This document shows positions 123 to 13,510 of a DNA stretch of 64,000 bases, in pieces. Under the pieces are notes generated by a model. It was given only the letters and a program-made list of their open reading frames with translations. It ran no database searches and was not told the origin of the DNA. The stretch spans positions 425,994-489,993 of the forward strand of contig JBFXEV010000001.1 of NCBI GenBank assembly GCA_050179755.1, read 5' to 3'. Positions within the stretch are counted from its first letter, which is position 1. Each line of letters begins with the position of its first letter. The position numbers and the translations under genes were made by a program. Source of the stretch: Candidatus Babeliales bacterium. Lineage in GTDB: Bacteria > Babelota > Babeliae > Babelales > JBFXEV01.

Positions 123-536
123 CTATCTATTTTCTAATTCTTCATTTGTTTCAATTACATATACATATACCCCTGCTAACATATCTAATAATAAATTTAA
201 ATATGCAAGATAATCGGTAGATGCTTCAACTTCATCAATATGCAACCGGCGCTTAAATGGTTCTTCAGGGTATAACTTTACTGAATAATTCACAAATACT
301 ACTGCAGCACGCAAATCGCCCTTTTGAATGCCAAAAAAGTATCGTTGCTTCTTTGTTAATGAGTCTAGTATATCTTGAGCAATTATTTCGCTATTTTCAG
401 TGATTACTTGAGATGTATTTATAAAAATACCAGAACTTTCAGCATTCTTTAAAATCATCTTATAGATGTCTAATGCACTATCCGCAGAGTATTCAACACT
501 ATACTGAGCATGGAAAAGCTTAATTTCTTTATTCAT
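123..536 (-). CDS. Candidate immunity protein B1 of toxin copy 1
   Basis: Second small low-GC gene downstream of toxin 914-2938. Paralog of 8089-8496 (MxKEIKLFH, G.L.A..VFV..S.KLY..EP, DY.AYL..LLD.L). Confidence 0.65.
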   Translation of the reverse strand: MNKEIKLFHAQYSVEYSADSALDIYKMILKNAESSGIFINTSQVITENSEIIAQDILDSLTKKQRYFFGIQKGDLRAAVVFVNYSVKLYPEEPFKRRLHIDEVEASTDYLAYLNLLLDMLAGVYVYVIETNEELENR

Positions 537-539
537 ACA

Positions 540-911
540 TTACTCAACATTCATTGCTATGTCATATATAGAAAATTCATGTATCAATTCAACAAAAATA
601 CGCATATAATGCACCATATCAATATCATAAAAATCACCAATCGAAAGACCTATCTCTTTTTTATCACAATCTCGCGGATGTGACGCAATAAAAAACAACT
701 CTCCATTTAATCTACCGGTAATTGCATAAGTAAAATATACATTTTCTGTCATTAATGCATCCACAGCTTCATCCACATTAGCAAATTTATAGGTATCGTC
801 TACAGAAGAATATTCTAACCCTAACCGCATTCCTTTCTCTAATATTTGTTTAATATTTGCTCGTGTATAATACGCTCTTAATTCGATCGAATAAGAAAAT
901 GCCATCCCCAT
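540..911 (-). CDS. Candidate immunity protein A1 of toxin copy 1
   Basis: Starts 2 nt after the toxin stop. Paralog of 8499-8870 (GLSIGDFYDID.V.YMRIFVE). Confidence 0.7.
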   Translation of the reverse strand: MGMAFSYSIELRAYYTRANIKQILEKGMRLGLEYSSVDDTYKFANVDEAVDALMTENVYFTYAITGRLNGELFFIASHPRDCDKKEIGLSIGDFYDIDMVHYMRIFVELIHEFSIYDIAMNVE

Positions 912-913
912 AG

Positions 914-2938
914 TTATATTACCTTGAAAGATATGTGATTCTTGATTAATTTTTCTTTTACAATATGCGGAACAGGATTACTATAATACACTTCATATAA
1001 TTTTCCTTCCCTTTCAGCCAGCGAACGCATATAGCAAAGACGCGATATATGATCATCTATTTTGTCAATCTTGTCCCAATAATAATTCTTACATTCTATC
1101 CATTTTGATGCAGTTACCAAATCAATTTCTCCTTGCGGCACTTTTCTACCAAACTCTATAATCGATTCACCGCGTCTAACTAAAAAATTTGCAGATTTAA
1201 TTTCATACCCCGCACCGCGCGCAGTGCTTATTGCTCCTCCCTCTTTATTGAAATTATTAATAAATTTTTGAAAAGGGCCCTCTTTAGACAAAAAACCTTT
1301 TGTATCTTTAAAATTTTTATAAGCAAAATCTAATTCCGCATACTCTAAGCCTATAGATTGCATAGCATTATGCATCGGCACTGTATCTAATTCTTTCAAC
1401 TTCGATATTGGCTCATCAGGTAACCAGTTTCTCGGCTTTTCTTTTTTTAAACGCTGAGCTCCATCACCACCATTCTGTGACAGCAGCGTCAAGCCAGGTG
1501 ACGCCTTAGAAGCAACATCAAAAACTTCACCAAGCGTACCGCCAGCAATTTCTATCGCGCTCGCACTTGCATTCATAATATCTGCAAGCGCTGCATCATA
1601 ACAAATTGCAGCTTGCATGGTGCTTGGATCTAGTGGTAAATTTAAAAAATCACTATTCTCTAAAAATCTACTCAATCCTGATCCGGCATTTTTACTCAAC
1701 ATGCCCAATGCACCAAAGGTAACGCTCGTTAACGTAGATTCCACCGCATAAGCAGTGCCTACTTCTATGCCTTTTAGCATGGTATCATAATCAAAATCAT
1801 GGCATATCTTTGTTAAAGCATTCTTAACATCAAGCATTGTTTGGCGGGCGGCAAATACGTCTCGCTTCACAAGGCCCCAATACGTTATCTTGCCCTGCTG
1901 CAGGTCAATCGCATCTTGCAATGATTGCTCCATGTAGCGCAGCGTGTAATGACCTGCCTTATTGCCAATAACATGCACTGTTTTTGCAAGGCCGTATAAT
2001 GTGTTGCAAGCAGTATCAATCGGATGCAGCACTTTATTTGCGTAATTTACACCTCCTTTTGCTGCTCCTCTGCCCACTGCGGCGCTAATATCACACGTAA
2101 TCTCTTTTACTTGCAGCGTTAACTTGTATAATCCATGGCAAAAATCAGCAAATGAAAAAGCGTCGGCTACACGCCCTCTCTGATTATGCACGTGGCCTGC
2201 ATGCGCAAAGCGCGTAAGTGTTGATGCAATTGGCTTATAATTATAATCTTGCTGATACCGCAGTTTGCCTGCACCGTTGAGAATATCCACAATCTCTTGA
2301 TGCAAGACGCGTTGAATTTGGTTGCCATAACATTTTGGATATGTTGTTGTTGCAATTCCTTCTTCCTGCATCAAACAAAAAGCTTCATGAGTAATCCGAT
2401 AAGTTTCTTCTTGCCATATTTGATTACCCGTCAAATAATCATGCAGAGCCTCTGTGCGCTTTACTCTATACTGACGGGGCGTTAACGCATGTATATCATC
2501 ATATACTTCTATTTGTTGATATAACGCATAGTGCTCTTGCAGTGCTTGCTGTGTTTCACCAAAAATCTGTGCAATCTGCTTTTTATAAACATGCTGTTCT
2601 TCAAGTTTTCTTTTTGCTTGATTTTGAGCTTCTAATTCATATGCATGTTGAGCGGCTGCCTGCTCTGCTTGTTTTAATTTCTCTTGTTTTTCATGCACAA
2701 ATGATGGATGCTGATATTCTTCCTCTTCTTGCTTTCTTTTCTCTTTTTTATCTGAGCTCTTTTTAAATATACTAACAAAACATTTGCCTGCAGCGTATGC
2801 AAAAACACAAGTACCAACTATTACGCTAGCTGCTGCTTCAGCCGAATCTTTCACAAAACTAAATTCATTTTGTGCATAGAGTTGTTACATTTGGCCAAAC
2901 AAAAATAACCAAAGTAAAGCAAGATGTTTTATTTTCAT
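914..2938 (-). pseudogene. Polymorphic toxin copy 1 (PD-(D/E)XK-like tip) with nonsense codon in the signal peptide
   Basis: ATG at 2938 gives MKIKHLALLWLFLFGQM then TAA at 2887-2885, where copies 2 and 3 have CAA. The rest is open (ORF 914-2854). C-terminus has E...EIDLVT..KWIECK. Confidence 0.8.
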
Positions 2939-3105
2939 ATGTACTCCTAAGATGTATAAAAACTATGTGCAAGTATAATCCCAAAAGTAAACATGTAAAG
3001 AAAAAACATCTCGATATATTGATTAAATCAGCATATCAAGCAAGCTAAAAAGTTATATTTTATGCGTAAGAATAAGATTTTTTAACACTTTTTTTATTTT
3101 TTTTG
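2939..3105 (-). repeat. Conserved upstream/promoter block of toxin copy 1
   Basis: Similar to 7896-8060 and 10954-11100; TTTACA-N16-TATACT and an AGGAG RBS on the minus strand. Confidence 0.7.
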
Positions 3106-3211
3106 AAGAAGCAAAAAATTGCAACCTTTCTTGCCAATAAACAACATTTTTGCTACGATCCTTACAATTCTTTTACTTGTACAGTACCTATATAACACAT
3201 AAACAAAAAAG

Positions 3212-3973
3212 ATGTTCATTATGCAAACACAAGACTTTTCCATCAAGCAAGTTAAAGACTTTTCCATCAAGGAGGCGTTGCTTTTTGGCTTTAGAAAAAC
3301 AAATGAACATATATTATTGATTTTATCTATAGAACTTTTATTTTTTTGTATTTGGCTACTACAAGCTTTGGCCGGAGCAATTACACATGGCATTCCAGAT
3401 AAAATAGCAGACCCAAACTTTTTACAAAAAAGTATTTTAATTGTGGGGTCTATAATACATAACATGATACCTCTCTCGATAAAGAGCCAGGTCTTATTTG
3501 CCTTAAGTCTTTTCATTTTGGCATCGCTTCTTGCTACTTTAGTATTATTACAAGGTGTTCGCCGAATTATGCTTGATATATACGACAAAAATGAAAGTTC
3601 TCTTTCTCAAATATATTCCCAAGTAGATATTTTTTCGGTTATTTTATTGGCAAAATTCCTGTACTTGATATCAGTGCTTGCTGGTAGCATTTGCATAATT
3701 CTTCCAGGTATTTACTTATCGGCAAAATATGGCTTCTATGCATATGTTTTACTTGATGATCAAACACTTGGTCCAGTCGATGCATTTAAAAAAAGTGGTC
3801 AAATAACAAAAGGATTCGTAAATCACCTATGCGTATATAATATTTTATGGATTATTTTGCTTATTCTTTCAATTCTTACATGGATTGGCTGGATTATTAT
3901 CGTTCCCGTATTAGTGCTGTCTGATACCTACATATATCGCCAAATAACTAGTCAGTCTACAGAAACAAACTAA
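3212..3973 (+). CDS. Integral membrane protein (DUF975-like)
   Basis: Several TM helices; PG..L..KY.FY.Y..LD......AFK.S..ITKG pattern. Confidence 0.6.
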   Translation: MFIMQTQDFSIKQVKDFSIKEALLFGFRKTNEHILLILSIELLFFCIWLLQALAGAITHGIPDKIADPNFLQKSILIVGSIIHNMIPLSIKSQVLFALSLFILASLLATLVLLQGVRRIMLDIYDKNESSLSQIYSQVDIFSVILLAKFLYLISVLAGSICIILPGIYLSAKYGFYAYVLLDDQTLGPVDAFKKSGQITKGFVNHLCVYNILWIILLILSILTWIGWIIIVPVLVLSDTYIYRQITSQSTETN

Positions 3974-3981
3974 CGATCAAT

Positions 3982-4494
3982 ATGAGAGAATTTCGCATTA
4001 CTACACAACAAAAAAATTCTCTCTACATTACGTCTTGCATTTTCCCAGAATCAGAAAAAGATATTGCAGAAGAGTTTTTTGATGATTACTCAGATACATT
4101 CTCTGCATGCAACTACCAGGTTGCTATATATGCAATCACCTTCAAGTCTATCTCCAATAGGCCATTTACAGAACAAGATTTAATATACTTAAAATGGAAT
4201 GGGCCAACAGTAAATATTATTGCTGAAGTAAGCTTAGAAACAATGAAGCAAGAAGTAAGAGAGTTTGTTTCTTTTACTGAAAATTGGGATCGTCTCGAGG
4301 ATCATAACATTATCAATGAGCGAGTGATTAAGTTCTGGATGATAGTCAATAATTACGTTCAAATATCGAAATGTAAAATATACCAATACTGCGTACATCA
4401 TGATCACCCAGACATGGGAATTTTCCAAACTACTAGTTTTGCCTTAGTAGATCAGTCACGCGGCCTTTTTTTATTTATGGTATCTTTTGATTAA
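3982..4494 (+). CDS. Hypothetical protein (possible orphan immunity protein)
   Basis: 170 aa low-GC ORF inside the toxin array; function inferred from context only. Confidence 0.45.
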   Translation: MREFRITTQQKNSLYITSCIFPESEKDIAEEFFDDYSDTFSACNYQVAIYAITFKSISNRPFTEQDLIYLKWNGPTVNIIAEVSLETMKQEVREFVSFTENWDRLEDHNIINERVIKFWMIVNNYVQISKCKIYQYCVHHDHPDMGIFQTTSFALVDQSRGLFLFMVSFD

Positions 4495-4515
4495 CAATAT
4501 TATTAACATTGTTTA

Positions 4516-4620
4516 TTAACTTAATCTATAGGCACTTAAAACCTCCAGCGCCGCTGCACTATCAGGTTTTTCTTTAATGATTTGCAGCGCAATTTCAATG
4601 GCCTCATCTTGTTTTAATGC
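4516..4620 (-). pseudogene. 3' remnant of a third TPR-like immunity gene
   Basis: Reads ALKQDEAIEIALQIIKEKPDSAAALEVLSAYRLS*, which aligns with the C-termini of 5129-5578 and 5587-6027. No start; TAA immediately upstream. Confidence 0.65.
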
Positions 4621-4633
4621 TTACCCTAGAATC

Positions 4634-5092
4634 CTAAGTATTATTTTCTGCCTTTAATTCACGAGTTGTTTGACTTACTTGAGATACAGACCCATCAGAA
4701 TGAACTGTAAATATATACTCTTTGGTAATATCAGAGATATCCACCGATGCAGTGTTTTTATCATGAGTTACATATAAAACACCGGGCACAAAATAAGGAA
4801 CTTGACCAGAATCATTTGCTCCAATATAATGCTGCACACTAAAATCTTCATTGCCATCTTGCTTTAGCAAAAAAGTAAGTTCTATGTTTTGATTCATTTC
4901 ATTACGTAGAACAATTCGTCTAAATTCTTCAGTGAATTGTTTCATAAGTTTTTCACGATGCTCTGGGGTAAAATACTCATGCGTATTATTTAACATCAGC
5001 GCATTTCTATTGCTCACATATTCTTCATAGAATTTTGATAAAATAAAAGCTATTGCAACAACAAGTAATATGCTAATAAAATTAATATTCAT
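4634..5092 (-). CDS. Hypothetical protein with N-terminal membrane anchor
   Basis: 152 aa ORF with hydrophobic N-terminus. Confidence 0.55.
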   Translation of the reverse strand: MNINFISILLVVAIAFILSKFYEEYVSNRNALMLNNTHEYFTPEHREKLMKQFTEEFRRIVLRNEMNQNIELTFLLKQDGNEDFSVQHYIGANDSGQVPYFVPGVLYVTHDKNTASVDISDITKEYIFTVHSDGSVSQVSQTTRELKAENNT

Positions 5093-5128
5093 ATATTTTC
5101 ACTTTAAAAAATTTATCTGACTTTTTTG

Positions 5129-5578
5129 TTAATTATTTTGTTTTAATATTTCTATTGCATCATAATTACTAGGATCTATTTCAAGGATTTCTTGAGCTAG
5201 CAAAGCAGCATGTCTTTTATCTAACAGGTTTCCCGGTAATGAATAAAAATTAATTATTTGCATCTTATAATCAATATTATCTGTCTCTAGCTCTAACGCT
5301 CGTTTCGCATGCCAAAATCCCGCTGCATATGCACCTTCCATCTCATTAAGTATCTTAATAAGAATACGCGACGCTAAATAATGATATCCTGCAGTTTCCT
5401 TTTGAATCAATACCGCAATAACATATCCATAACTAAGAATCGATGGCTTTTCATAATTAATCGCAATCATTACTTGCCATAATTCATCTAAATTCAAATG
5501 CTTTGCAAGTACATGCGCCTGCGCAAACTCACCATAATAAAGTAATTTATAAAATTTTTGTACATCAATCGTTTGCAT
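5129..5578 (-). CDS. TPR-like candidate immunity protein 2 of toxin copy 2
   Basis: Likely start MQTIDV at 5578 (AAGGT upstream). H.LAS..L.......GAY..G..HA.RA.ELE..NI.YK shared with 5587-6027. Confidence 0.7.
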   Translation of the reverse strand: MQTIDVQKFYKLLYYGEFAQAHVLAKHLNLDELWQVMIAINYEKPSILSYGYVIAVLIQKETAGYHYLASRILIKILNEMEGAYAAGFWHAKRALELETDNIDYKMQIINFYSLPGNLLDKRHAALLAQEILEIDPSNYDAIEILKQNN

Positions 5579-5586
5579 ATGTGACC

Positions 5587-6027
5587 TTATCGTTGTATGC
5601 CATAACGCTCCAACACGTTTAAAGAAACACCGCATTCAGGATCTTCTTGCAATACTTCTTGAGCAATTTTTATTGCCTCTTCTTTATCAACAAGCTGCTC
5701 AGGTATATCATGAAATAAAATCATGAACCGTTTATATTCTATGTTCTTTGGCTCTAATTCACTAGCTCGCCTAGCATGAAAAAGACCAACGCTGTAAGCT
5801 CCATTATAAGCACATAAAGGCATTGCCATAAGATAAGACGCCCATCCGTGTTCTGCAGCACCTTCATGCTTTATTAATATGCTAGCCGCTAAGGTATACA
5901 AAGTAATATTATGTGTTTTATACGACCATTCTTCTATTCCTTTCGGTAAAACTTCTATATTTGTTATCAAATCTTTAACTTCATCAATTTTACCTATCAT
6001 CAACAAATCAATTATTTTTAAATTCAT
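5587..6027 (-). CDS. TPR-like candidate immunity protein 1 of toxin copy 2
   Basis: Likely start MNLKII at 6027 overlaps the toxin stop (ATGA). Helical-repeat pattern. Confidence 0.75.
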   Translation of the reverse strand: MNLKIIDLLMIGKIDEVKDLITNIEVLPKGIEEWSYKTHNITLYTLAASILIKHEGAAEHGWASYLMAMPLCAYNGAYSVGLFHARRASELEPKNIEYKRFMILFHDIPEQLVDKEEAIKIAQEVLQEDPECGVSLNVLERYGIQR

Positions 6028-7895
6028 GGTCGCACCCAAGAATTACCTATCATTTTTTTCCCATTCTCAATAAAAAAATTAACTTGTACGGTTTCCACAC
6101 CTATTTTCAAGAATCTCATCTTAACCATCTCATTTTGGAGCTTCTTATAGATGTTCTTTATATATAAATCTTCCTGCCCCTCTTTCATAACCTTAGTCAT
6201 TATTCGAGCTATGGAATCAAAGTCTTTTGGATCTTTAACGAGCCTATCCCATAAATGATGCTCTGCCATAATATGATCTTTGTTGTGCTGGCACAAGTTT
6301 GCGATATTATCGTCTATTTCACCTATACCTTCAATGTATATTTTATACCTATCTTGTAATGGATCCATTAACCCATTAGAATTACTGCCATTCGTACTTG
6401 CCGTAAAATTATTTTGTCCATCACCGCCATTCTGCGACAGCACCGTCAAGCCAGGTGACGCCTTAGAAGCAACATCAAAAACTTCACCAAGCGTACCGCC
6501 AGCAATTTCTATCGCGCTCGCACTTGCATTCATAATATCTGCAAGCGCTGCATCATAACAAATTGCCGCCTGCATAGTGCTTGGATCTAGTGGTAAATTT
6601 AAAAAATCACTATTCTCTAAAAATCTACTCAATCCAGACCCTGCATTTTTGCTCAACATGCCCAATACACCAAAGGTAACGCTCGTCAACGTAGATTCCA
6701 CCGCATAAGCAGTGCCCACTTCTACACCTTTTAACATGGTATCATAATCAAAATCATGGCATATCTTTGTTAAAGCATTTTTAACATCAAGCACTGTTTG
6801 GCGGGCGGCAAATACGTCTCGCTTCACAAGGCCCCAATATGTTATCTTGCCCTGCTGCAGGTCAATCGCATCTTGCAATGATTGCTCCATGTAGCGCAGC
6901 GTGTAATGACCTGCCTTATTGCCAATAATATGCACTGTTTTTGCAAGACCATATAATGTGTCTCGCGCTGCATCAAATGGATGCAGCAGTTTATTTGCGT
7001 AATTTACACCTCCTTTTGCTGCTCCTCTGCCAACTGCGGCGCCAATATCACATGTAATCTCTTTTACTTGCAGCGTTAACTTGTATAATCCATGGCAAAA
7101 ATCAGCAAATGAAAAAGCGTCGGCTACACGCCCTCTCTGATTATGCACGTGGCCTGCATGCGCAAAGCGAGTAAGTGTTGATGCAATGGGTTTATAATTA
7201 TAATCTTGCTGATATCGCAGAGATCCTGCGCCATTGAGAATATCCACAAACTCTTGATGCAAGACGCGTTGAATTTGATTGCCATAACACGTTGGATATG
7301 CTGTTACTTCAATGCATTCCTCCTGCATCAAACAAAAAGCTTCATGAGTAATTTGATACGTCTGTTCTTGCCATATTTGATTCCCCGTCAAACAATCATG
7401 CAAAGCCTCTGTGCGCTTTACTCTATACTGACGGGGAGTTAACGCATGTATATCATCATATACTTCTATCTGTTGATATAACGCATAGTGTTCTTGCAGT
7501 TCTTGCTGTGTTTCACTAAAAATCTGCGCCGTCTGCTTTTTATAAACACGCTGTTCTTCACATTTTCTTTTTGCTTGATTTTGAACTTCTAATTCATATG
7601 CATGTTGGGCAGCTGCTTGCTCTGCTTGCTTTAATTTTTCTTGTTTTTCACGCACAAATGATAGATGCTGATATTCTTCCTCTTCCTGCTTTCTTTTCTC
7701 TTTTTTATCTGAGCTCTTTTTAAATATACTAACAAAACATTTGCCTGCAGCGTATGCTAAAACACAAGTACCAACTATTACGCTAGCTGCTGCTTCAGCC
7801 GAATCTTTCACAAAACTAAATTCATTTTGTGCATAGAGTTGTTGCGTTTGACCAAAAACAAACAGCCAAAGTAAGGCAAGATGTTTTATTTTCAT
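6024..7895 (-). CDS. Polymorphic toxin copy 2 with His-motif putative RNase tip (Ntox35-like)
   Basis: Sec signal peptide; about 490 aa near-identical to copies 1 and 3; unrelated C-terminus with HIMAEHHLWDRL...IGNSWV. Confidence 0.75.
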   Translation of the reverse strand: MKIKHLALLWLFVFGQTQQLYAQNEFSFVKDSAEAAASVIVGTCVLAYAAGKCFVSIFKKSSDKKEKRKQEEEEYQHLSFVREKQEKLKQAEQAAAQHAYELEVQNQAKRKCEEQRVYKKQTAQIFSETQQELQEHYALYQQIEVYDDIHALTPRQYRVKRTEALHDCLTGNQIWQEQTYQITHEAFCLMQEECIEVTAYPTCYGNQIQRVLHQEFVDILNGAGSLRYQQDYNYKPIASTLTRFAHAGHVHNQRGRVADAFSFADFCHGLYKLTLQVKEITCDIGAAVGRGAAKGGVNYANKLLHPFDAARDTLYGLAKTVHIIGNKAGHYTLRYMEQSLQDAIDLQQGKITYWGLVKRDVFAARQTVLDVKNALTKICHDFDYDTMLKGVEVGTAYAVESTLTSVTFGVLGMLSKNAGSGLSRFLENSDFLNLPLDPSTMQAAICYDAALADIMNASASAIEIAGGTLGEVFDVASKASPGLTVLSQNGGDGQNNFTASTNGSNSNGLMDPLQDRYKIYIEGIGEIDDNIANLCQHNKDHIMAEHHLWDRLVKDPKDFDSIARIMTKVMKEGQEDLYIKNIYKKLQNEMVKMRFLKIGVETVQVNFFIENGKKMIGNSWVRP

Positions 7896-8060
7896 GAGTG
7901 CTCCTTAGATGTATAAAAACTATGTGCAAGTATAATCCAAAAACTAACATGTAAAGAGAAATTGTCTCAATCAATTGACTCAATCAATGTATTGAATACA
8001 TAAAAATGATATTTTAGCGCGCAAGAATAAGTTTTTTAACGTTCTTTTTATTTTTTTTGA
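7896..8060 (-). repeat. Conserved upstream/promoter block of toxin copy 2
   Basis: Homologous to 2939-3105 and 10954-11100. Confidence 0.7.
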
Positions 8061-8088
8061 GATGGAAAATAGCTTACGGTCGATAACT

Positions 8089-8496
8089 TTACAATTCTTC
8101 ATTTATCTCAAGACCATCAATACGAATACTCTCAAGTAAGTCGAGCAATATGTCTAAATATGCAACATAGTCAGGTGACGGTTCTCTTTCTTCAATATGT
8201 AATTTCATAATTAAGGGTTCTTGTAGATATAATTTTATTGAATTACTCACAAATACTATACGTGCATGTAGATTACCTCTTTGTATATAAAAACTATATT
8301 GTTTATTATTATCTATAGCTCTATATATTTGCTCTGCAATAACTGATACATCAAATTCTCTTTTATTTTCATTAGAGAAAATTGAAATAAAATGCTTTTG
8401 TGCATTTCCTAAAAATGTAGCATACACTTCATGTAAGTCTATATAATCCGGAGTTGAATCAAAATGAACATGAAATAATTTAATTTCTTTAAACAT
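8089..8496 (-). CDS. Candidate immunity protein B3 of toxin copy 3
   Basis: Paralog of 123-536; starts 2 nt after 8499. Confidence 0.65.
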   Translation of the reverse strand: MFKEIKLFHVHFDSTPDYIDLHEVYATFLGNAQKHFISIFSNENKREFDVSVIAEQIYRAIDNNKQYSFYIQRGNLHARIVFVSNSIKLYLQEPLIMKLHIEEREPSPDYVAYLDILLDLLESIRIDGLEINEEL

Positions 8497-8498
8497 AA

Positions 8499-8870
8499 TT
8501 ACTCTATATCAATTTTAAGGTCACAGATTGCAAAATTCCTTATCATTTCAACAAATATTCGCATATAATAGACAGCATCAATATCATAAAAATCACCTAT
8601 TGATAGGCCCAACTTCCTAATTTCAGGATCACGCGGTGAAGATGCAATATGTATAATATGACCATCTATTTTTCCTATAATCGAATAGGTCTCATATATA
8701 TTAATAGACAATAATGCTGCAACTGCATCATCGAGGCTTTCAAATTCTTGATCACATGCTACAGGAAAATATTTAAATCCAAACCTTATTCCTTGTTCAA
8801 GAATATTTTTAAAATTTTGTTTTGTATATGAAACATTTAGTAATATTTCATATGAATAGGCTCTACTCAA
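8499..8870 (-). CDS. Candidate immunity protein A3 of toxin copy 3
   Basis: Probable TTG start at 8870 after GAGGA (MSRAYSY aligns with MGMAFSY). Paralog of 540-911. Confidence 0.7.
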   Translation of the reverse strand: MSRAYSYEILLNVSYTKQNFKNILEQGIRFGFKYFPVACDQEFESLDDAVAALLSINIYETYSIIGKIDGHIIHIASSPRDPEIRKLGLSIGDFYDIDAVYYMRIFVEMIRNFAICDLKIDIE

Positions 8871-8871
8871 T

Positions 8872-10953
8872 TTATTCCTCACAAAGAGTTATACCAATTT
8901 TTATTAATCTTGCTCTAATGTCTTCTGGCACACCATTACTAAAGCAAATTTCATATATTTTTCCATCTTTTTTGGCAAGGTCTCTTGCATGACCCGCTCG
9001 TGAAAGCAACCTTTTTACTTTGTCTTCGGAAATTTTATCCCAGAACCAATCTTTACACTCGATCCACTTAGTTTCTGTAACTATATCAATTTCACAATCT
9101 AGCACTTTTTTACCAAATTCAATTATACGTTCTTTATTTTTAAATAGTCTATTGGCTGTTTTAATTTCAAAAGCTGCTCCTTGAGCAGTTTTTGTACTTT
9201 TCGCTGCTCTAAAATTATTAATAAATTTTTGGAATGGACCATCTTTAGTTAAAAATCCCTTTATATCTTTAAATTGCTCATAAGTTATTCTTAACTCTTC
9301 ATATTCAAGTCCTACTCTTTGCATTTGATGATATGTTGATGGAGTGTTTAATTCTTCTAATTTTAAACATGCTTCCTCAGATAGCCAGTTTCTTGGCTTT
9401 TCTCTAGGAGCATTTTGACTGTTTTGAGTATTATTGCCAAATCCACTTATTTGTGCGCCGTCATCAGACGTACTATTTGGTCCACTGCCTCCTGATCCAG
9501 CATTCGATGCCAATGTTAACACAGGAGCTATTTTAGATGCTGCGTCAAAAGCCCCACTAGCTATTTGAACAGCACCTGCACTTGCATTCATAATATCTGC
9601 AAGCGCTGCATCATAACAAATTGCCGCCTGCATAGTGCTTGGATCTAATGGTAAATTTAAAAAATCGCTATTCTCTAAAAATCTACTCAATCCTGATCCG
9701 GCATTTTTGCTCAACATGCCCAATGCACCAAAGGTAACGCTCGTTAACGTAGATTCCACCGCATAAGCAGTGCCTACTTCTATGCCTTTTAGCATGGTAT
9801 CATAATCAAAATCATGGCATATCTTTGTTAAAGCATTCTTAACATCAAGCATTGTTTGGCGGGCGGCAAATACGTCTCGCTTCACAAGGCCCCAATACGT
9901 TATCTTGCCCTGCTGCAGGTCAATCGCATCTTGCAATGATTGCTCCATGTAGCGCAGCGTGTAATGACCTGCCTTATTGCCAATAACATGCACTGTTTTT
10001 GCAAGGCCGTATAATGTGTTGCAAGCAGTATCAATCGGATGCAGCACTTTATTTGCGTAATTTACACCTCCTTTTGCTGCTCCTCTGCCCACTGCGGCGC
10101 TAATATCACACGTAATCTCTTTTACTTGCAGCGTTAACTTGTATAATCCATGGCAAAAATCAGCAAATGAAAAAGCGTCGGCTACACGCCCTCTCTGATT
10201 ATGCACGTGGCCTGCATGCGCAAAGCGCGTAAGTGTTGATGCAATTGGCTTATAATTATAATCTTGCTGATACCGCAGTTTGCCTGCACCGTTGAGAATA
10301 TCCACAATCTCTTGATGCAAGACGCGTTGAATTTGATTGCCATAACATTTTGGATATGTTGTTGTTGCAATTCCTTCTTCCTGCATCAAACAAAAAGCTT
10401 CATGCGTAATTTGATACGTCTGTTCTTGCCATACGTGATTACCCGTCAAACAATCATGCAGAGCCTCTGTGCGCTTTACTCTATATTGATGGGGAGTTAA
10501 CGCATGTATATCATCATATACTTCTATCTGTTGATATAACGCATAGTGTTCTTGCAGTTCTTGCTGTGTTTCACTAAAAATCTGCGCCGTCTGCTTTTTA
10601 TAAACACGCTGTTCTTCACATTTTCTTTTTGCTTGATTTTGAACTTCTAATTCATATGCATGTTGGGCAGCTGCTTGCTCTGCTTGCTTTAATTTTTCTT
10701 GTTTTTCACGCACAAATGATAGATGCTGATATTCTTCCTCTTCCTGCTTTCTTTTCTCTTTTTTATCTGAGCTCTTTTTAAATATACTAACAAAACATTT
10801 GCCTGCAGCGTATGCTAAAACACAAGTACCAACTATTACGCTAGCTGCTGCTTCAGCCGAATCTTTCACAAAACTAAATTCATTTTGTGCATAGAGTTGT
10901 TGCGTTTGACCAAAAACAAACAGCCAAAGTAAGGCAAGATGTTTTATTTTCAT
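8872..10953 (-). CDS. Polymorphic toxin copy 3 with PD-(D/E)XK-like nuclease tip
   Basis: Intact signal peptide, shared N-terminal body, Gly/Ser/Asn linker, GAAFEIK...EIDIVTETKWIECKDW. Confidence 0.8.
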   Translation of the reverse strand: MKIKHLALLWLFVFGQTQQLYAQNEFSFVKDSAEAAASVIVGTCVLAYAAGKCFVSIFKKSSDKKEKRKQEEEEYQHLSFVREKQEKLKQAEQAAAQHAYELEVQNQAKRKCEEQRVYKKQTAQIFSETQQELQEHYALYQQIEVYDDIHALTPHQYRVKRTEALHDCLTGNHVWQEQTYQITHEAFCLMQEEGIATTTYPKCYGNQIQRVLHQEIVDILNGAGKLRYQQDYNYKPIASTLTRFAHAGHVHNQRGRVADAFSFADFCHGLYKLTLQVKEITCDISAAVGRGAAKGGVNYANKVLHPIDTACNTLYGLAKTVHVIGNKAGHYTLRYMEQSLQDAIDLQQGKITYWGLVKRDVFAARQTMLDVKNALTKICHDFDYDTMLKGIEVGTAYAVESTLTSVTFGALGMLSKNAGSGLSRFLENSDFLNLPLDPSTMQAAICYDAALADIMNASAGAVQIASGAFDAASKIAPVLTLASNAGSGGSGPNSTSDDGAQISGFGNNTQNSQNAPREKPRNWLSEEACLKLEELNTPSTYHQMQRVGLEYEELRITYEQFKDIKGFLTKDGPFQKFINNFRAAKSTKTAQGAAFEIKTANRLFKNKERIIEFGKKVLDCEIDIVTETKWIECKDWFWDKISEDKVKRLLSRAGHARDLAKKDGKIYEICFSNGVPEDIRARLIKIGITLCEE

Positions 10954-10986
10954 GAGTGCTCCTTAGATGTATAAAAACTATGTGCA

Positions 10987-11014
10987 AGTATAATCCCAAA
11001 AGTAAACATGTAAA
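10987..11014 (-). promoter_or_regulatory. Sigma70-like promoter of toxin copy 3
   Basis: TTTACA (11014-11009)-N16-TATACT (10992-10987), conserved in all three copies; AAGGAG RBS. Confidence 0.55.
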
Positions 11015-11104
11015 GAAAAAACATCTCGATATATTGATTAAATCAATGTATTGAATACATAAAAATGATATTTTAGCGCGCAATAATAAGCTTTTTATAC
11101 ACTA

Positions 11105-13024
11105 CTACTCAGCAAGACGTGCTATAACCTCTTTATTTACTTCTCTTTTTTCTGCAGCGCGCATTGCATGTTTCCACATAACATCACGCACATTATAGCC
11201 CGGGTGATGTGCTGCATTATAAGCTTCAGCCACCTTAAACCCGATGAACAGTTCTAGTATTTCTGCCGTCTCGCGCATCTTCCATAAACGCTGCATTTCT
11301 TGCGAAAGATCATGCACTGTTTTGCCCGTGTGCAAGTTAGGCATACTCACCGGCATGTCCATTAGCCTTGTATCATCAGATGCCCATGCCACCCTTGGCC
11401 ATAAAAGATATACTAGAGTCCTCAGTTTTTCTAATTGCCCTTTATAGCGATAACTATTGTACAGTAATACTTCAATTGGTTTTAGATGATCATAGTTTTC
11501 TAGCAACTTATCACCGTCCAAACTGCGCACAAAATCAAACACAGCCGGGTCCATTAAGGCGCCATGCTCTGCAAGCGCGTGATACATTGTATTACCTTCA
11601 TAATCTTGTTTGTTCACATCAATATACTTTGCAACCAATTTCGCCATGGCAACTGAACGCGGGCAAAAAGATCTGTGCACGTCAGCATAAAGCTTGTGCC
11701 GTAGCATGTATTGTATAAACGCACAATCATCTTCAAGAAAAGCATGCTTTACCATGTGGCGCAATTCAGAACTATCAAATAAATATCCCAATCGAGTGGC
11801 AATAGTTAATGCAACCCAGCCACGTACGGTATGCCAATTTAAAAATATTCTCTTAAATTCTTGCTCTAAAAGAATACCCGCATCATCAGACACTGAAATA
11901 TCCTTGCGCTTGCACGCCAAAACCCGTCTACCGCCACTATAACTTGCATCTGTGTTTAATACTTTGCAAGATAAATCATCTGATCGCTCGGGCACAAGGG
12001 GCACGCATTGCTGCATAAATGAAAGCGTAACCACTTGATCAACCTCATCAATCTCTTGATGTTCTTCACAAATCAATGTGGCAACATCTTGCGCTCTATA
12101 ACAAACACCTTGTAGGTCAGGTATGTCCTGCGTATAAGCAAGCCCCAACGCACAAGCAACAGGTGCATAACGATTAATCAGAAGATAATCTTTGTATGTT
12201 TTGCCATGAGCATCTTTTACTGTGCCATCAACTCCTTGCGCCAGCAAGAATATAAGCATTGGCACAATGCATTCTTCTTTTTGCTCTAGATTGTAGAGCG
12301 CTGCGCAATGCAATGGCGTACGTCCTTGTGCATCGCACGCATGCACGTCAGCTCCTTTAGCTATGCAAAACTTTAAAAGTTTAATTATTTCGTTGCCAGC
12401 ATGCCCGCGGCTTTTAGGCATAGGAGGGTGTGTACACATATGATGTAGTATTGTTTTATTATCTCTGGCAGCACGCACACTATAATCTGCGCCAAGAAAT
12501 AACCAAAGCCGCTTGGCCATTTTTTTACTTTGCGCAATAAAAAAAAATGGTAATTCTTCACTGCTACAAATTCCCTTACGACGTGCAGGTTCGCATGTAT
12601 TTTCGGTATACAATGTATGTATAAGCCAACTTGGAGCAGGTCTATATGGTGCAATAGTTGCAATAAAACGCGGCAAGTCTTTCTCTATCGCCTTTTTAAG
12701 CAATGCTCGTAAATCGAATTCATCTGCAACGCCCACGGCTACACAGCATGCGGCCTTATATTGTTGCTCCATAGTATCAAGAGCCGCCACGTGCGCGAGC
12801 GCATCTTTGCGCACAGAATATGGACTCGCGCGCAAGCGCTGTGCTGTGCGATCTTCTTGTAATTCCCAAGTGGGCCAATATCCATTAAAAGTACGTGCAG
12901 CCAGAATAGGCCAACCGTGATTTGCAAACTCTTCTTTGGTGTTAAATGGTTTTATAATATCCATCGCGCCCACCACATGAGCTACCGCAATCATACTCAG
13001 CAACACAATTCTCTGTATAATCAT
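11105..13024 (-). CDS. Secreted ankyrin-repeat protein
   Basis: Signal peptide (...VVGA-MD); GADVHACDAQGRTPLHCAA. Paralog of 20210-21982. Confidence 0.8.
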   Translation of the reverse strand: MIIQRIVLLSMIAVAHVVGAMDIIKPFNTKEEFANHGWPILAARTFNGYWPTWELQEDRTAQRLRASPYSVRKDALAHVAALDTMEQQYKAACCVAVGVADEFDLRALLKKAIEKDLPRFIATIAPYRPAPSWLIHTLYTENTCEPARRKGICSSEELPFFFIAQSKKMAKRLWLFLGADYSVRAARDNKTILHHMCTHPPMPKSRGHAGNEIIKLLKFCIAKGADVHACDAQGRTPLHCAALYNLEQKEECIVPMLIFLLAQGVDGTVKDAHGKTYKDYLLINRYAPVACALGLAYTQDIPDLQGVCYRAQDVATLICEEHQEIDEVDQVVTLSFMQQCVPLVPERSDDLSCKVLNTDASYSGGRRVLACKRKDISVSDDAGILLEQEFKRIFLNWHTVRGWVALTIATRLGYLFDSSELRHMVKHAFLEDDCAFIQYMLRHKLYADVHRSFCPRSVAMAKLVAKYIDVNKQDYEGNTMYHALAEHGALMDPAVFDFVRSLDGDKLLENYDHLKPIEVLLYNSYRYKGQLEKLRTLVYLLWPRVAWASDDTRLMDMPVSMPNLHTGKTVHDLSQEMQRLWKMRETAEILELFIGFKVAEAYNAAHHPGYNVRDVMWKHAMRAAEKREVNKEVIARLAE

Positions 13025-13510
13025 AAATCTCTTTGCTCCCGTATTCTCCTGTATGATCAAGCTTTGTTTTATTAAACTTGTTTATGCACGACAATTGCTC
13101 TTCTTTGCCATATTGCATAAAACGATAACTGTGCTCTGCTAACACGTCAAGCGCAGTCTGTGACCAAAAACAAACAGCTAAAGTACTGAACATCAAGAAG
13201 TTGAATTAAAAGCACAACGGAGTGAGCTCTCTTGTGTTTCTGCATTTTTTGGAATAATGTCTGCATTTACCTTTATGCAGGCAGAAAGTGATGTAACTTT
13301 GCGATTAATTTCTTTCGCTTCTGCTTTACTTGCGACATCTCACCATGTTACCAAACAACAGTTATCCGCTGGCACTATTTTTGAGACTAGAAAGAAAGAA
13401 TTAGCTACACAGTTAAATATAACTAAAATCAAAATTGAACCTGATGAATTTATAAGCTGTGTAAAAAACAATCATTAAATTCAGTAAAATTTTATTACTC
13501 TGCAGCCTTC

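Follow-up and report, generated by a model that had tools for sequence, protein, structure and literature searches.

Toxins that join a signal peptide and a lineage-specific N-terminal domain to a variable C-terminal toxin form a class that has already been described (PMC3482391). In the MafB/MafI system of Neisseria (MAFB-N, DUF1020/PF06255), a signal peptide and a lineage-restricted constant N-terminal domain are followed by a variable nuclease tip, EndoU included, and by a cognate gene behind it (PMC4287609, PMC3482391); the ABP/BetaH systems have also been described (PMC9424270, PMC13460014). The polymorphic toxin loci of the Bodo saltans endosymbiont are a precedent in protist symbionts (PMC8163844), and a 2025 screen reported the Babelota as devoid of toxin-antitoxin systems (PMC12644861). 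The present analysis concerns a tandem array of such genes near the start of a 64,000-nucleotide stretch, hereafter the window, from Candidatus Babeliales bacterium (assembly GCA_050179755.1, contig JBFXEV010000001.1, positions 425,994 to 489,993). The locus resembles MafB/MafI in each of these respects, and is probably a MafB-like, Sec-exported antibacterial toxin-immunity system with its own lineage-specific carrier, acting mainly against co-infecting bacteria.

The source genome (G000) is a single contig of 1.525 Mb with 39% GC, and is 96% complete. Three minus-strand paralogues lie in the window, named T3, T2 and T1 in their order of reading, and the features are as follows, in window coordinates.

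8872..10953, minus strand: T3, an intact carrier-toxin of 693 amino acids (aa) with signal peptide, charged coiled coil, core, post-core helices and a putative PD-(D/E)xK tip
9979..10491, minus strand: the conserved helical core of T3, of about 170 aa (aa 155-325), which defines the family
8875..9405, minus strand: T3 tip, with a predicted restriction-endonuclease (REase) fold and the motif residues E596, D623, E632 and K634 intact
10954..11090, minus strand: leader before T3, with counterparts at about 7896-8040 (T2) and at 2939-3075 (T1); TTTACA-16-TATACT stands before T3 and T1
8499..8882, minus strand: putative immunity gene for the T3 tip (likely start TTG 8870), from a family that follows the same tip class in other genomes
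8089..8496, minus strand: second putative immunity gene behind T3, a distant paralogue of 8499-8882; both domains are fused in some genomes
6024..7895, minus strand: T2, an intact carrier-toxin of 623 aa with an Ntox35 tip
6033..6287, minus strand: T2 tip, of Ntox35 RNase type (PF15534, 27.7 bits against a cut-off of 23.6)
5587..6039, minus strand: TPR-like putative immunity gene behind T2 (likely start ATG 6027, which overlaps the stop of T2 as ATGA); its product is predicted to bind the T2 tip
5129..5635, minus strand: second TPR-like paralogue (likely start 5578)
914..2938, minus strand: T1, a carrier with a putative PD-(D/E)xK tip, an in-frame TAA and a body that is a T2-like/T3-like mosaic
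540..911, minus strand: putative immunity gene for the T1 tip, 49% identical to 8499-8882
123..536, minus strand: second putative immunity gene behind T1, 40% identical to 8089-8496
4634..5092, minus strand: gene of 152 aa with a hydrophobic N-terminal segment, behind the TPR-like genes
3212..4494, plus strand: two genes that interrupt the array, for a weakly DUF975-like membrane protein and a 170-aa protein without assigned family

A preliminary description of the window had seen three full-length paralogues, each with a signal peptide and a near-identical body. The bodies were indeed near-identical (90-93% of bases or better in most 90-nt blocks), but the signal peptide of T1 carries an in-frame TAA at 2887-2885, its codon 18; the open frame of T1 therefore begins at GTG 2854 and excludes the signal, so that two intact copies are left. 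Public contigs from three DNA runs of one study were identical to the window in its unique parts and broke within the repeated bodies; no listed piece among them spanned the T1 stop or the array order. Identity between bodies was distributed as a mosaic, with T2 and T3 agreeing over codons 1-154, T1 and T3 over 193-420 and T1 and T2 over 460-490, which points to recombination or gene conversion. Divergence into different C-termini after a Gly-rich linker, as first described, was accurate for T1 and T2, which switch abruptly; T3 departs about 30 codons earlier, and its tip is 53% identical to that of T1. Since these two tips are related and are followed by homologous downstream genes, the array contains two tip classes, not three.

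The tight coupling of each carrier to small genes was borne out, with gaps of 2 nt and 3 nt behind T1, an ATGA overlap behind T2 and gaps of 1-2 nt behind T3. So was the AT-richness of tips and downstream genes relative to the bodies: GC was 0.40-0.41 in the bodies, 0.31-0.34 in the tips, 0.27-0.35 in the downstream genes and 0.39 in the genome, and two unrelated plus-strand genes within the array also gave 0.33-0.34. A conserved leader of about 130 nt was repeated ahead of each carrier. Promoter-like sites occurred at chance level (48 found, against 49.0 in shuffles), as did candidate terminators; thus, of the suggestion that each copy has its own promoter, what stands is the repeated leader.

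Across the phylum, the carrier architecture comprised a signal peptide, a variable N-terminal part, a conserved helical module of about 300 aa (the core plus post-core helices) and the C-terminal tip. The core was predicted to be mainly helical, with a mean predicted local distance difference test (pLDDT) value of 85.8. The T3 body alone, as a query, found matches in 16 of 61 related genomes. The preliminary description had proposed a profile search with the shared body, tabulating tips and downstream genes; carried out with a profile of 43 core sequences, it recovered the core in 128 of the phylum's 261 genomes and in 1,099 protein clusters at 50% identity, of whose representatives the best 150 were viewed, and returned varied tips with co-varying neighbours, as detailed below. 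Among the homologues viewed, those with a named lineage were Dependentiae, Babeliales or TM6, and the window is placed in the Babelota on that basis. About 130 aa behind the core were conserved too, a profile built from one half of the carriers recovering 39 of 44 held-out ones, and in the Atlas this post-core region lay weakly near the MafB and PT-TG clusters, MafB at the top (0.85, as a lead only). The part before the core was variable (43 clusters among 110), and some carriers had two cores.

The core itself did not match any described toxin carrier. None of the 43 core sequences gave a consistent Pfam or NCBIfam match; among PDB sequences the best match was to designed proteins (E = 0.048), while a CdiA chain was not significant (E = 0.68). 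Foldseek returned no match to the core at E <= 0.001; the best VIA match of the core model was to designed helical bundles (Z = 8.4), which is within the range of common helical arrangements and marks the fold as neither new nor known, and its Atlas neighbours reached at most 0.84 and were unnamed. A single core sequence had no match in phage, plasmid or viral-contig collections, a limited test of restriction to the Babelota, and the profile found the core in 0 of 301 genomes of one other phylum, in a search run without a positive control. A weak match in the Eubacteriales was rejected as chance on follow-up. Judged by these sequence comparisons, the carrier is phylum-wide, a scale that had been understated, and is apparently undescribed in the toxin literature, which agrees with its initial placement outside known families.

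Flanking DNA was fetched for a subset of the best core matches, giving 93 distinct carriers; the five with fewer than 170 aa after the core were dropped. The other 88 carried 26 tip clusters on one core, and 34 tip clusters were found among 130 metagenomic representatives. In 79 of the 88, a gene on the same strand began within 50 nt downstream; six had no downstream open reading frame (ORF) in the retrieved DNA, and three had gaps of 101-233 nt. Comparison of carriers in pairs showed that 151 pairs shared both tip and next gene, while only 4 shared the next gene alone; shuffling gave a mean of 14.9 such gene-only pairs (maximum 38), and 0 of 1000 shuffles were as low as the observed value. 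Because kin are not independent, the pairs were also split by core identity. Where the cores were at least 80% identical, 14 of 19 pairs differed in tip and all 14 also differed in next gene; where they were below 30% identical and the tip was the same, EndoU pairs set aside, 23 of 27 shared the next gene. A carrier tree, built by a quick method, was used descriptively. These counts support the view that the next gene follows the tip, independently of the body, as the initial claim of co-variation had held. Tandem arrays of full-length carriers were also observed elsewhere, at L091 (G233), L092 (G243) and L045 (G019); L091 has four in a row with three tip classes.

Tips were compared with Pfam in 104 of the 150 viewed representatives, short ones and nearly all those already analysed having been left out. 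The cut-off of a nuclease-toxin family was exceeded in 33 of the 104. The families recognised above cut-off were EndoU, Ntox17, Ntox21, Ntox35, Colicin_D, Cytotoxic and Ribonuclease, an E3-like type being among them; all recognised tips belong to nuclease families, which bears out the identification of a polymorphic toxin system. The 104 representatives included no Rhs, FHA, PAAR, LXG, MafB or PT-TG domain, and one had an N-terminal PT-HINT. 

Both tip classes of the window are consistent with nucleases. In T2, H541 and H547 align with conserved columns of Ntox35, E replacing K before the second histidine. The T1/T3 class matched no named Tox-REase family above cut-off; however, a fold model of the T3 tip built from 24 sequences (pLDDT 95.6) was closest to AF1548 (Z = 8.8, root-mean-square deviation 2.5, 98 residues aligned), and most of the top matches were PD-(D/E)xK proteins. 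The CdiA-CT and TseT PD-(D/E)xK toxins gave Z of 6.6-7.1, Foldseek gave E = 1e-4 to Cdn1/Card1, and the E, D and ExK residues were conserved across the 24 sequences. On this modelling, the T1/T3 tip belongs to the PD-(D/E)xK nucleases. Word-index searches for both window tips on other carriers produced almost no matches. The REase tip class and its immunity family were also seen on carriers that lack the core, at 64292-67123, 1053110-1054939 and 677202-679895 of the source contig (G000:C1; L055, L056), one such carrier having an N-terminal PT-HINT and one a frameshift near its end; tips are exchanged between carrier types. In addition, stand-alone proteins of about 190-260 aa, with a hydrophobic N-terminus and a T1/T3-type PD-(D/E)xK domain but no immunity-family gene behind, were observed at L148-L152, L154 and L158-L160, and are possibly host-directed or domesticated nucleases.

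The T2 tip and the first TPR-like protein (5587-6039) gave a complex model scoring 0.89, whereas the best-scoring of three controls reached 0.03; the mark applied was reached by 116 of 157 solved complexes and by 2 of 215 mismatched pairs, counts that are only rough for alignments such as those used here. Repeated runs shared at least 86% of contacts, partner pLDDT was at least 89 and both conserved histidines lay in the interface, so the modelling supports binding of the tip by this protein. By sequence, neither partner has a natural solved relative, the TPR side matching designed TPR proteins only. The Ntox35 of Staphylococcus aureus is a tested antibacterial RNase that is neutralised by a TPR protein (PMC13556192). 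Outside the source genome, an Ntox35-like ORF preceded the TPR family at 12 of the 14 places viewed. The REase-immunity family, which was grouped by iterative search on a small set at loose E-values, with a shared pattern visible in the alignment, was the first downstream gene at 18 of 30 REase loci; nine of the other 12 were short stand-alone proteins. Members of the immunity families (8089-8882, 123-911 and 5129-6039; L137, L138, L053) occurred either as two genes of about 130-150 aa or as one fused two-domain gene of about 280-320 aa. Behind a split carrier, at L011 1240-1656, CdiI_ImmP (PF24172) was found above cut-off, linking the system to an immunity family of CDI type. Five tandem EndoU-type immunity paralogues followed one toxin at L035 4885-6596 (G001), with similar runs in L031, L044 and L055.

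The initial contrast between full-length copies and orphan cassettes did not hold, nor are several full-length copies unusual: Neisseria strains likewise carry several full-length MafB genes together with cassettes (PMC4287609). Directly to the left of the window there are orphan pieces of REase and EndoU type, and orphan tip or immunity cassettes were located in the source genome at 425651-425956, 424531-425592, 210501-210845 and 886564-888345, as well as in the congeneric genome G001 (L031, L034). The orthologous locus of G001, identified by the same upstream ankyrin gene (32% identical, E = 1e-78), opens with a toxin that has an EndoU tip, behind which come three immunity genes of EndoU type and, as an orphan, a REase cassette. 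In the window, this signal-bearing ankyrin-repeat protein (11105-13060) stands immediately upstream of the array, and its position in G001 is the same. A remnant of the DUF975-like gene (3212-3973) was seen by eye in the same orientation behind the cassette run in G001 (L031 10705-10932), so this gene may be part of the locus backbone; the plus-strand pair as a whole is probably not part of the system. The product of 4634-5092 is 51% identical to the C-terminal half of an ORF left of the window (G000:C1 424918-425592, L051), whose N-terminal half is an EndoU fragment and which is followed by an EndoU-type immunity gene.

The source genome encodes two secretins and two Omp85 proteins, while VgrG, type III/flagellar SctV/FlhA and VirB4-type families were not found in it in searches whose controls responded. 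The secretion systems reported for the phylum are Sec and type II only (PMC4378268, PMC4776705), and vesicle release has been reported for C. destructans (PMC6561590). The gene content agrees with these reports, and carriers are proposed to use Sec with a type II system or vesicles. A lipobox-like motif was present in 4 of 81 carriers. The 74 genes upstream of carriers fell into 65 clusters, the largest of seven, and included no conserved MafA-like gene. Seven carriers (L038, L041, L042, L049, L102, L125) had a related upstream gene of about 380-500 aa, on the same strand in six; in some lineages it may constitute an accessory or flanking family.

Taken together, these observations suggest a sequence of steps. 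As the computational evidence shows, a tip travels with the signal-less gene behind it as one cassette, which recombination within the repeated body exchanges, and orphan tip and immunity cassettes accumulate downstream. Toxins would be exported by Sec and cross the outer membrane through the type II system or in outer-membrane vesicles; the helical module may anchor the protein or carry the tip across a target membrane. Once in the cytoplasm of a competing bacterium, most likely a different Babelota strain that shares the protist or vacuole, tips such as Ntox35 and EndoU would degrade RNA, and PD-(D/E)xK tips would degrade DNA or RNA. The cognate cytoplasmic protein would block the active site in self and siblings, and spare immunity paralogues would protect against non-self variants. 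The carrier architecture, the cassettes of tip and gene and the build-up of orphans, together with immunity function, are held with great confidence. That the target is bacterial is a likely proposition, adopted because spare immunity genes are what one would expect if non-self bacteria attack with the same tips, the simplest candidates being other Babelota. Any named export route falls a little short of an even chance.

Several observations count against antibacterial toxin-immunity function. T1 is probably disabled; 5 of the 93 carriers elsewhere lack tips, and in 71 of the 104 representatives no tip exceeded a Pfam cut-off. In 145 pairs the two carriers had the same tip cluster and differed in the next gene; almost all of these pairs fell in the broad EndoU cluster. 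A hydrophobicity heuristic detected signal-like N-termini in 66 of 81 carriers and in 11 of 79 downstream genes, but it was also positive in 383 of 592 long ORFs of the genome, meaning that signal peptides are barely enriched in carriers over this background. No receptor-binding or entry domain was identified in the carriers. Finally, cytoplasmic immunity could serve only to guard against unexported toxin, which a host-directed effector would need as well. In the main rival, the tips would be nuclease effectors released into the protist, where they would break down nucleic acids of the nucleus, cytosol or mitochondria to supply nutrients or to bring about lysis; the gene behind the tip would guard only against toxin that is not exported. 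Dependentiae live as intracellular parasites and lyse their hosts; for C. destructans, degradation of the host nucleus, release of vesicles and numerous secreted nucleases have been described (PMC6561590); the Amoebophilus APD1/APD2 proteins provide a precedent for host-directed proteins (PMC3482391), and the phylum has the signal-bearing, stand-alone PD-(D/E)xK proteins that lack an immunity family. This explanation is nevertheless unlikely, as the orphan and multiplied immunity genes, such as the five behind the EndoU toxin of G001, the five of REase type behind 64292 in the source genome and the lone EndoU-type copies at 396720 and 888692, fit non-self bacterial tips and not a host; moreover, the recognised tips are all nucleases of antibacterial type, and Pfam scans gave no ubiquitin-system or other eukaryote-specific tip.

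Stockpiled immunity to the system's own tip families implies attack by other users of those tips, and rapid tip swapping among close kin fits discrimination between self and non-self. Both observations make it improbable that the weapon is aimed at unrelated residents of the protist (Chlamydiae, Legionellales, Rickettsiales or giant-virus factories) instead of kin, even though single amoeba cells do hold Babelota with Chlamydiae, Gammaproteobacteria and giant viruses (PMC12644861), and the Sec-exported S8-Ntox35 kills across genera (PMC13556192); this explanation overlaps in part with the antibacterial system favoured here. The least credible account, with very little probability attached to it, is that the cassettes persist without competitive use, through host addiction or as selfish toxin-antitoxin pairs. 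Such an account was proposed for the Bodo saltans endosymbiont loci (PMC8163844), and many copies here are broken or partial; yet cultured Dependentiae lyse their hosts (PMC4378268, PMC6561590), the antitoxins mostly lack signal-like N-termini and so would not rescue a host, and a conserved carrier of about 300 aa exceeds the needs of a selfish pair.

A broader proposition is that the carriers represent an undescribed, phylum-wide class of toxin delivery, in which the obligate intracellular Babelota, having no type III, IV, V or VI machinery, would employ a new helical module to deliver Sec-exported nucleases to the cytoplasm of other diderms within one protist; this is more doubtful than not. 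If true, it would mean superinfection exclusion at strain level, with no fewer than 26-34 types of tip and a number of toxin and immunity families still to be named. Babelota genomes are tiny, yet about half of those in the phylum carry such an arsenal, with the core in nine ORFs of the source genome. Should the antibacterial interpretation be correct, competition among parasites in one protist would be strong enough to keep and reshuffle these arsenals, and a defined domain would be at hand with which to test how a Sec-exported protein enters another diderm cell. The core profile can also serve to collect as yet unnamed families of nucleases and immunity proteins, and the analysis adds candidate immunity families both for the REase-type tip and for Ntox35, here in a Gram-negative lineage. 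Searches confined to the open-licence literature, with subscription papers outside their scope, listed no paper on polymorphic toxins in Dependentiae; the legend to Figure 5 of PMC4378268 mentions a PD-DExK nuclease, which may bear on novelty.

Membership of MafB, Cdi, Rhs or LXG was rejected, the domains of those families not being found in Pfam scans. PF06255 had no match in the window proteins or in 148 relatives scanned, and in none of 261 genomes of the phylum, the latter in a search run without a responding control; the locus further differs from MafB in that its conserved module is mid-protein behind a variable N-terminal part and is sometimes duplicated, and in that no conserved MafA-like gene was found upstream. 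CdiA, Rhs, LXG and PT-TG systems have tip families, C-terminal displacement and orphan cassettes in common with it, and the modelled T3 tip resembles CdiA-CT and TseT in fold; the difference is that FHA, Rhs, PAAR, LXG, WXG and PT-TG were not found in the carriers scanned. PT-TG occurred in 2 of the 261 genomes and not in the source genome (the control responded). Seven PT-TG matches were observed in G070 (L194-L201), four of them in ORFs of about 1,800 aa, and represent a different, probably Rhs-like toxin system in the phylum; at 6 of 8 PT-TG loci checked in G070 and G064, the core was missing from stretches of about 3 kb.

The S8-PTS/ABP systems (BetaH-toxin, and S8-Ntox35 with TPR-Imm1 in S. 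aureus) are likewise Sec-exported polymorphic nucleases, with ColD, ColE3, Ntox21 and Ntox35 tips (PMC9424270, PMC13556192), and Ntox35 is paired with TPR immunity both there and here, the TPR families being likened by description. However, BetaH is a beta-sheet domain of about 120 aa in monoderms, with a dedicated S8 peptidase gene (PMC9424270), whereas the present core is predicted to be helical, in a diderm and without a conserved upstream gene; from predicted core fold and upstream genes, membership of BetaH/ABP appears unlikely. Microscilla-N and Amoebophilus APD1/APD2 are also lineage-specific constant domains that follow a signal peptide and precede diverse C-termini (PMC3482391). The APDs, known from an endosymbiont of amoebae, stand behind a lipobox and bear host-directed domains, and both kinds of carrier are described from single species (PMC3482391); the present carrier, set apart from them by description, occurs in about half of the genomes of its phylum and has cognate downstream genes. 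The architecture is thus a familiar one, and what is new is an apparently undescribed carrier and its scale in an obligate intracellular phylum.

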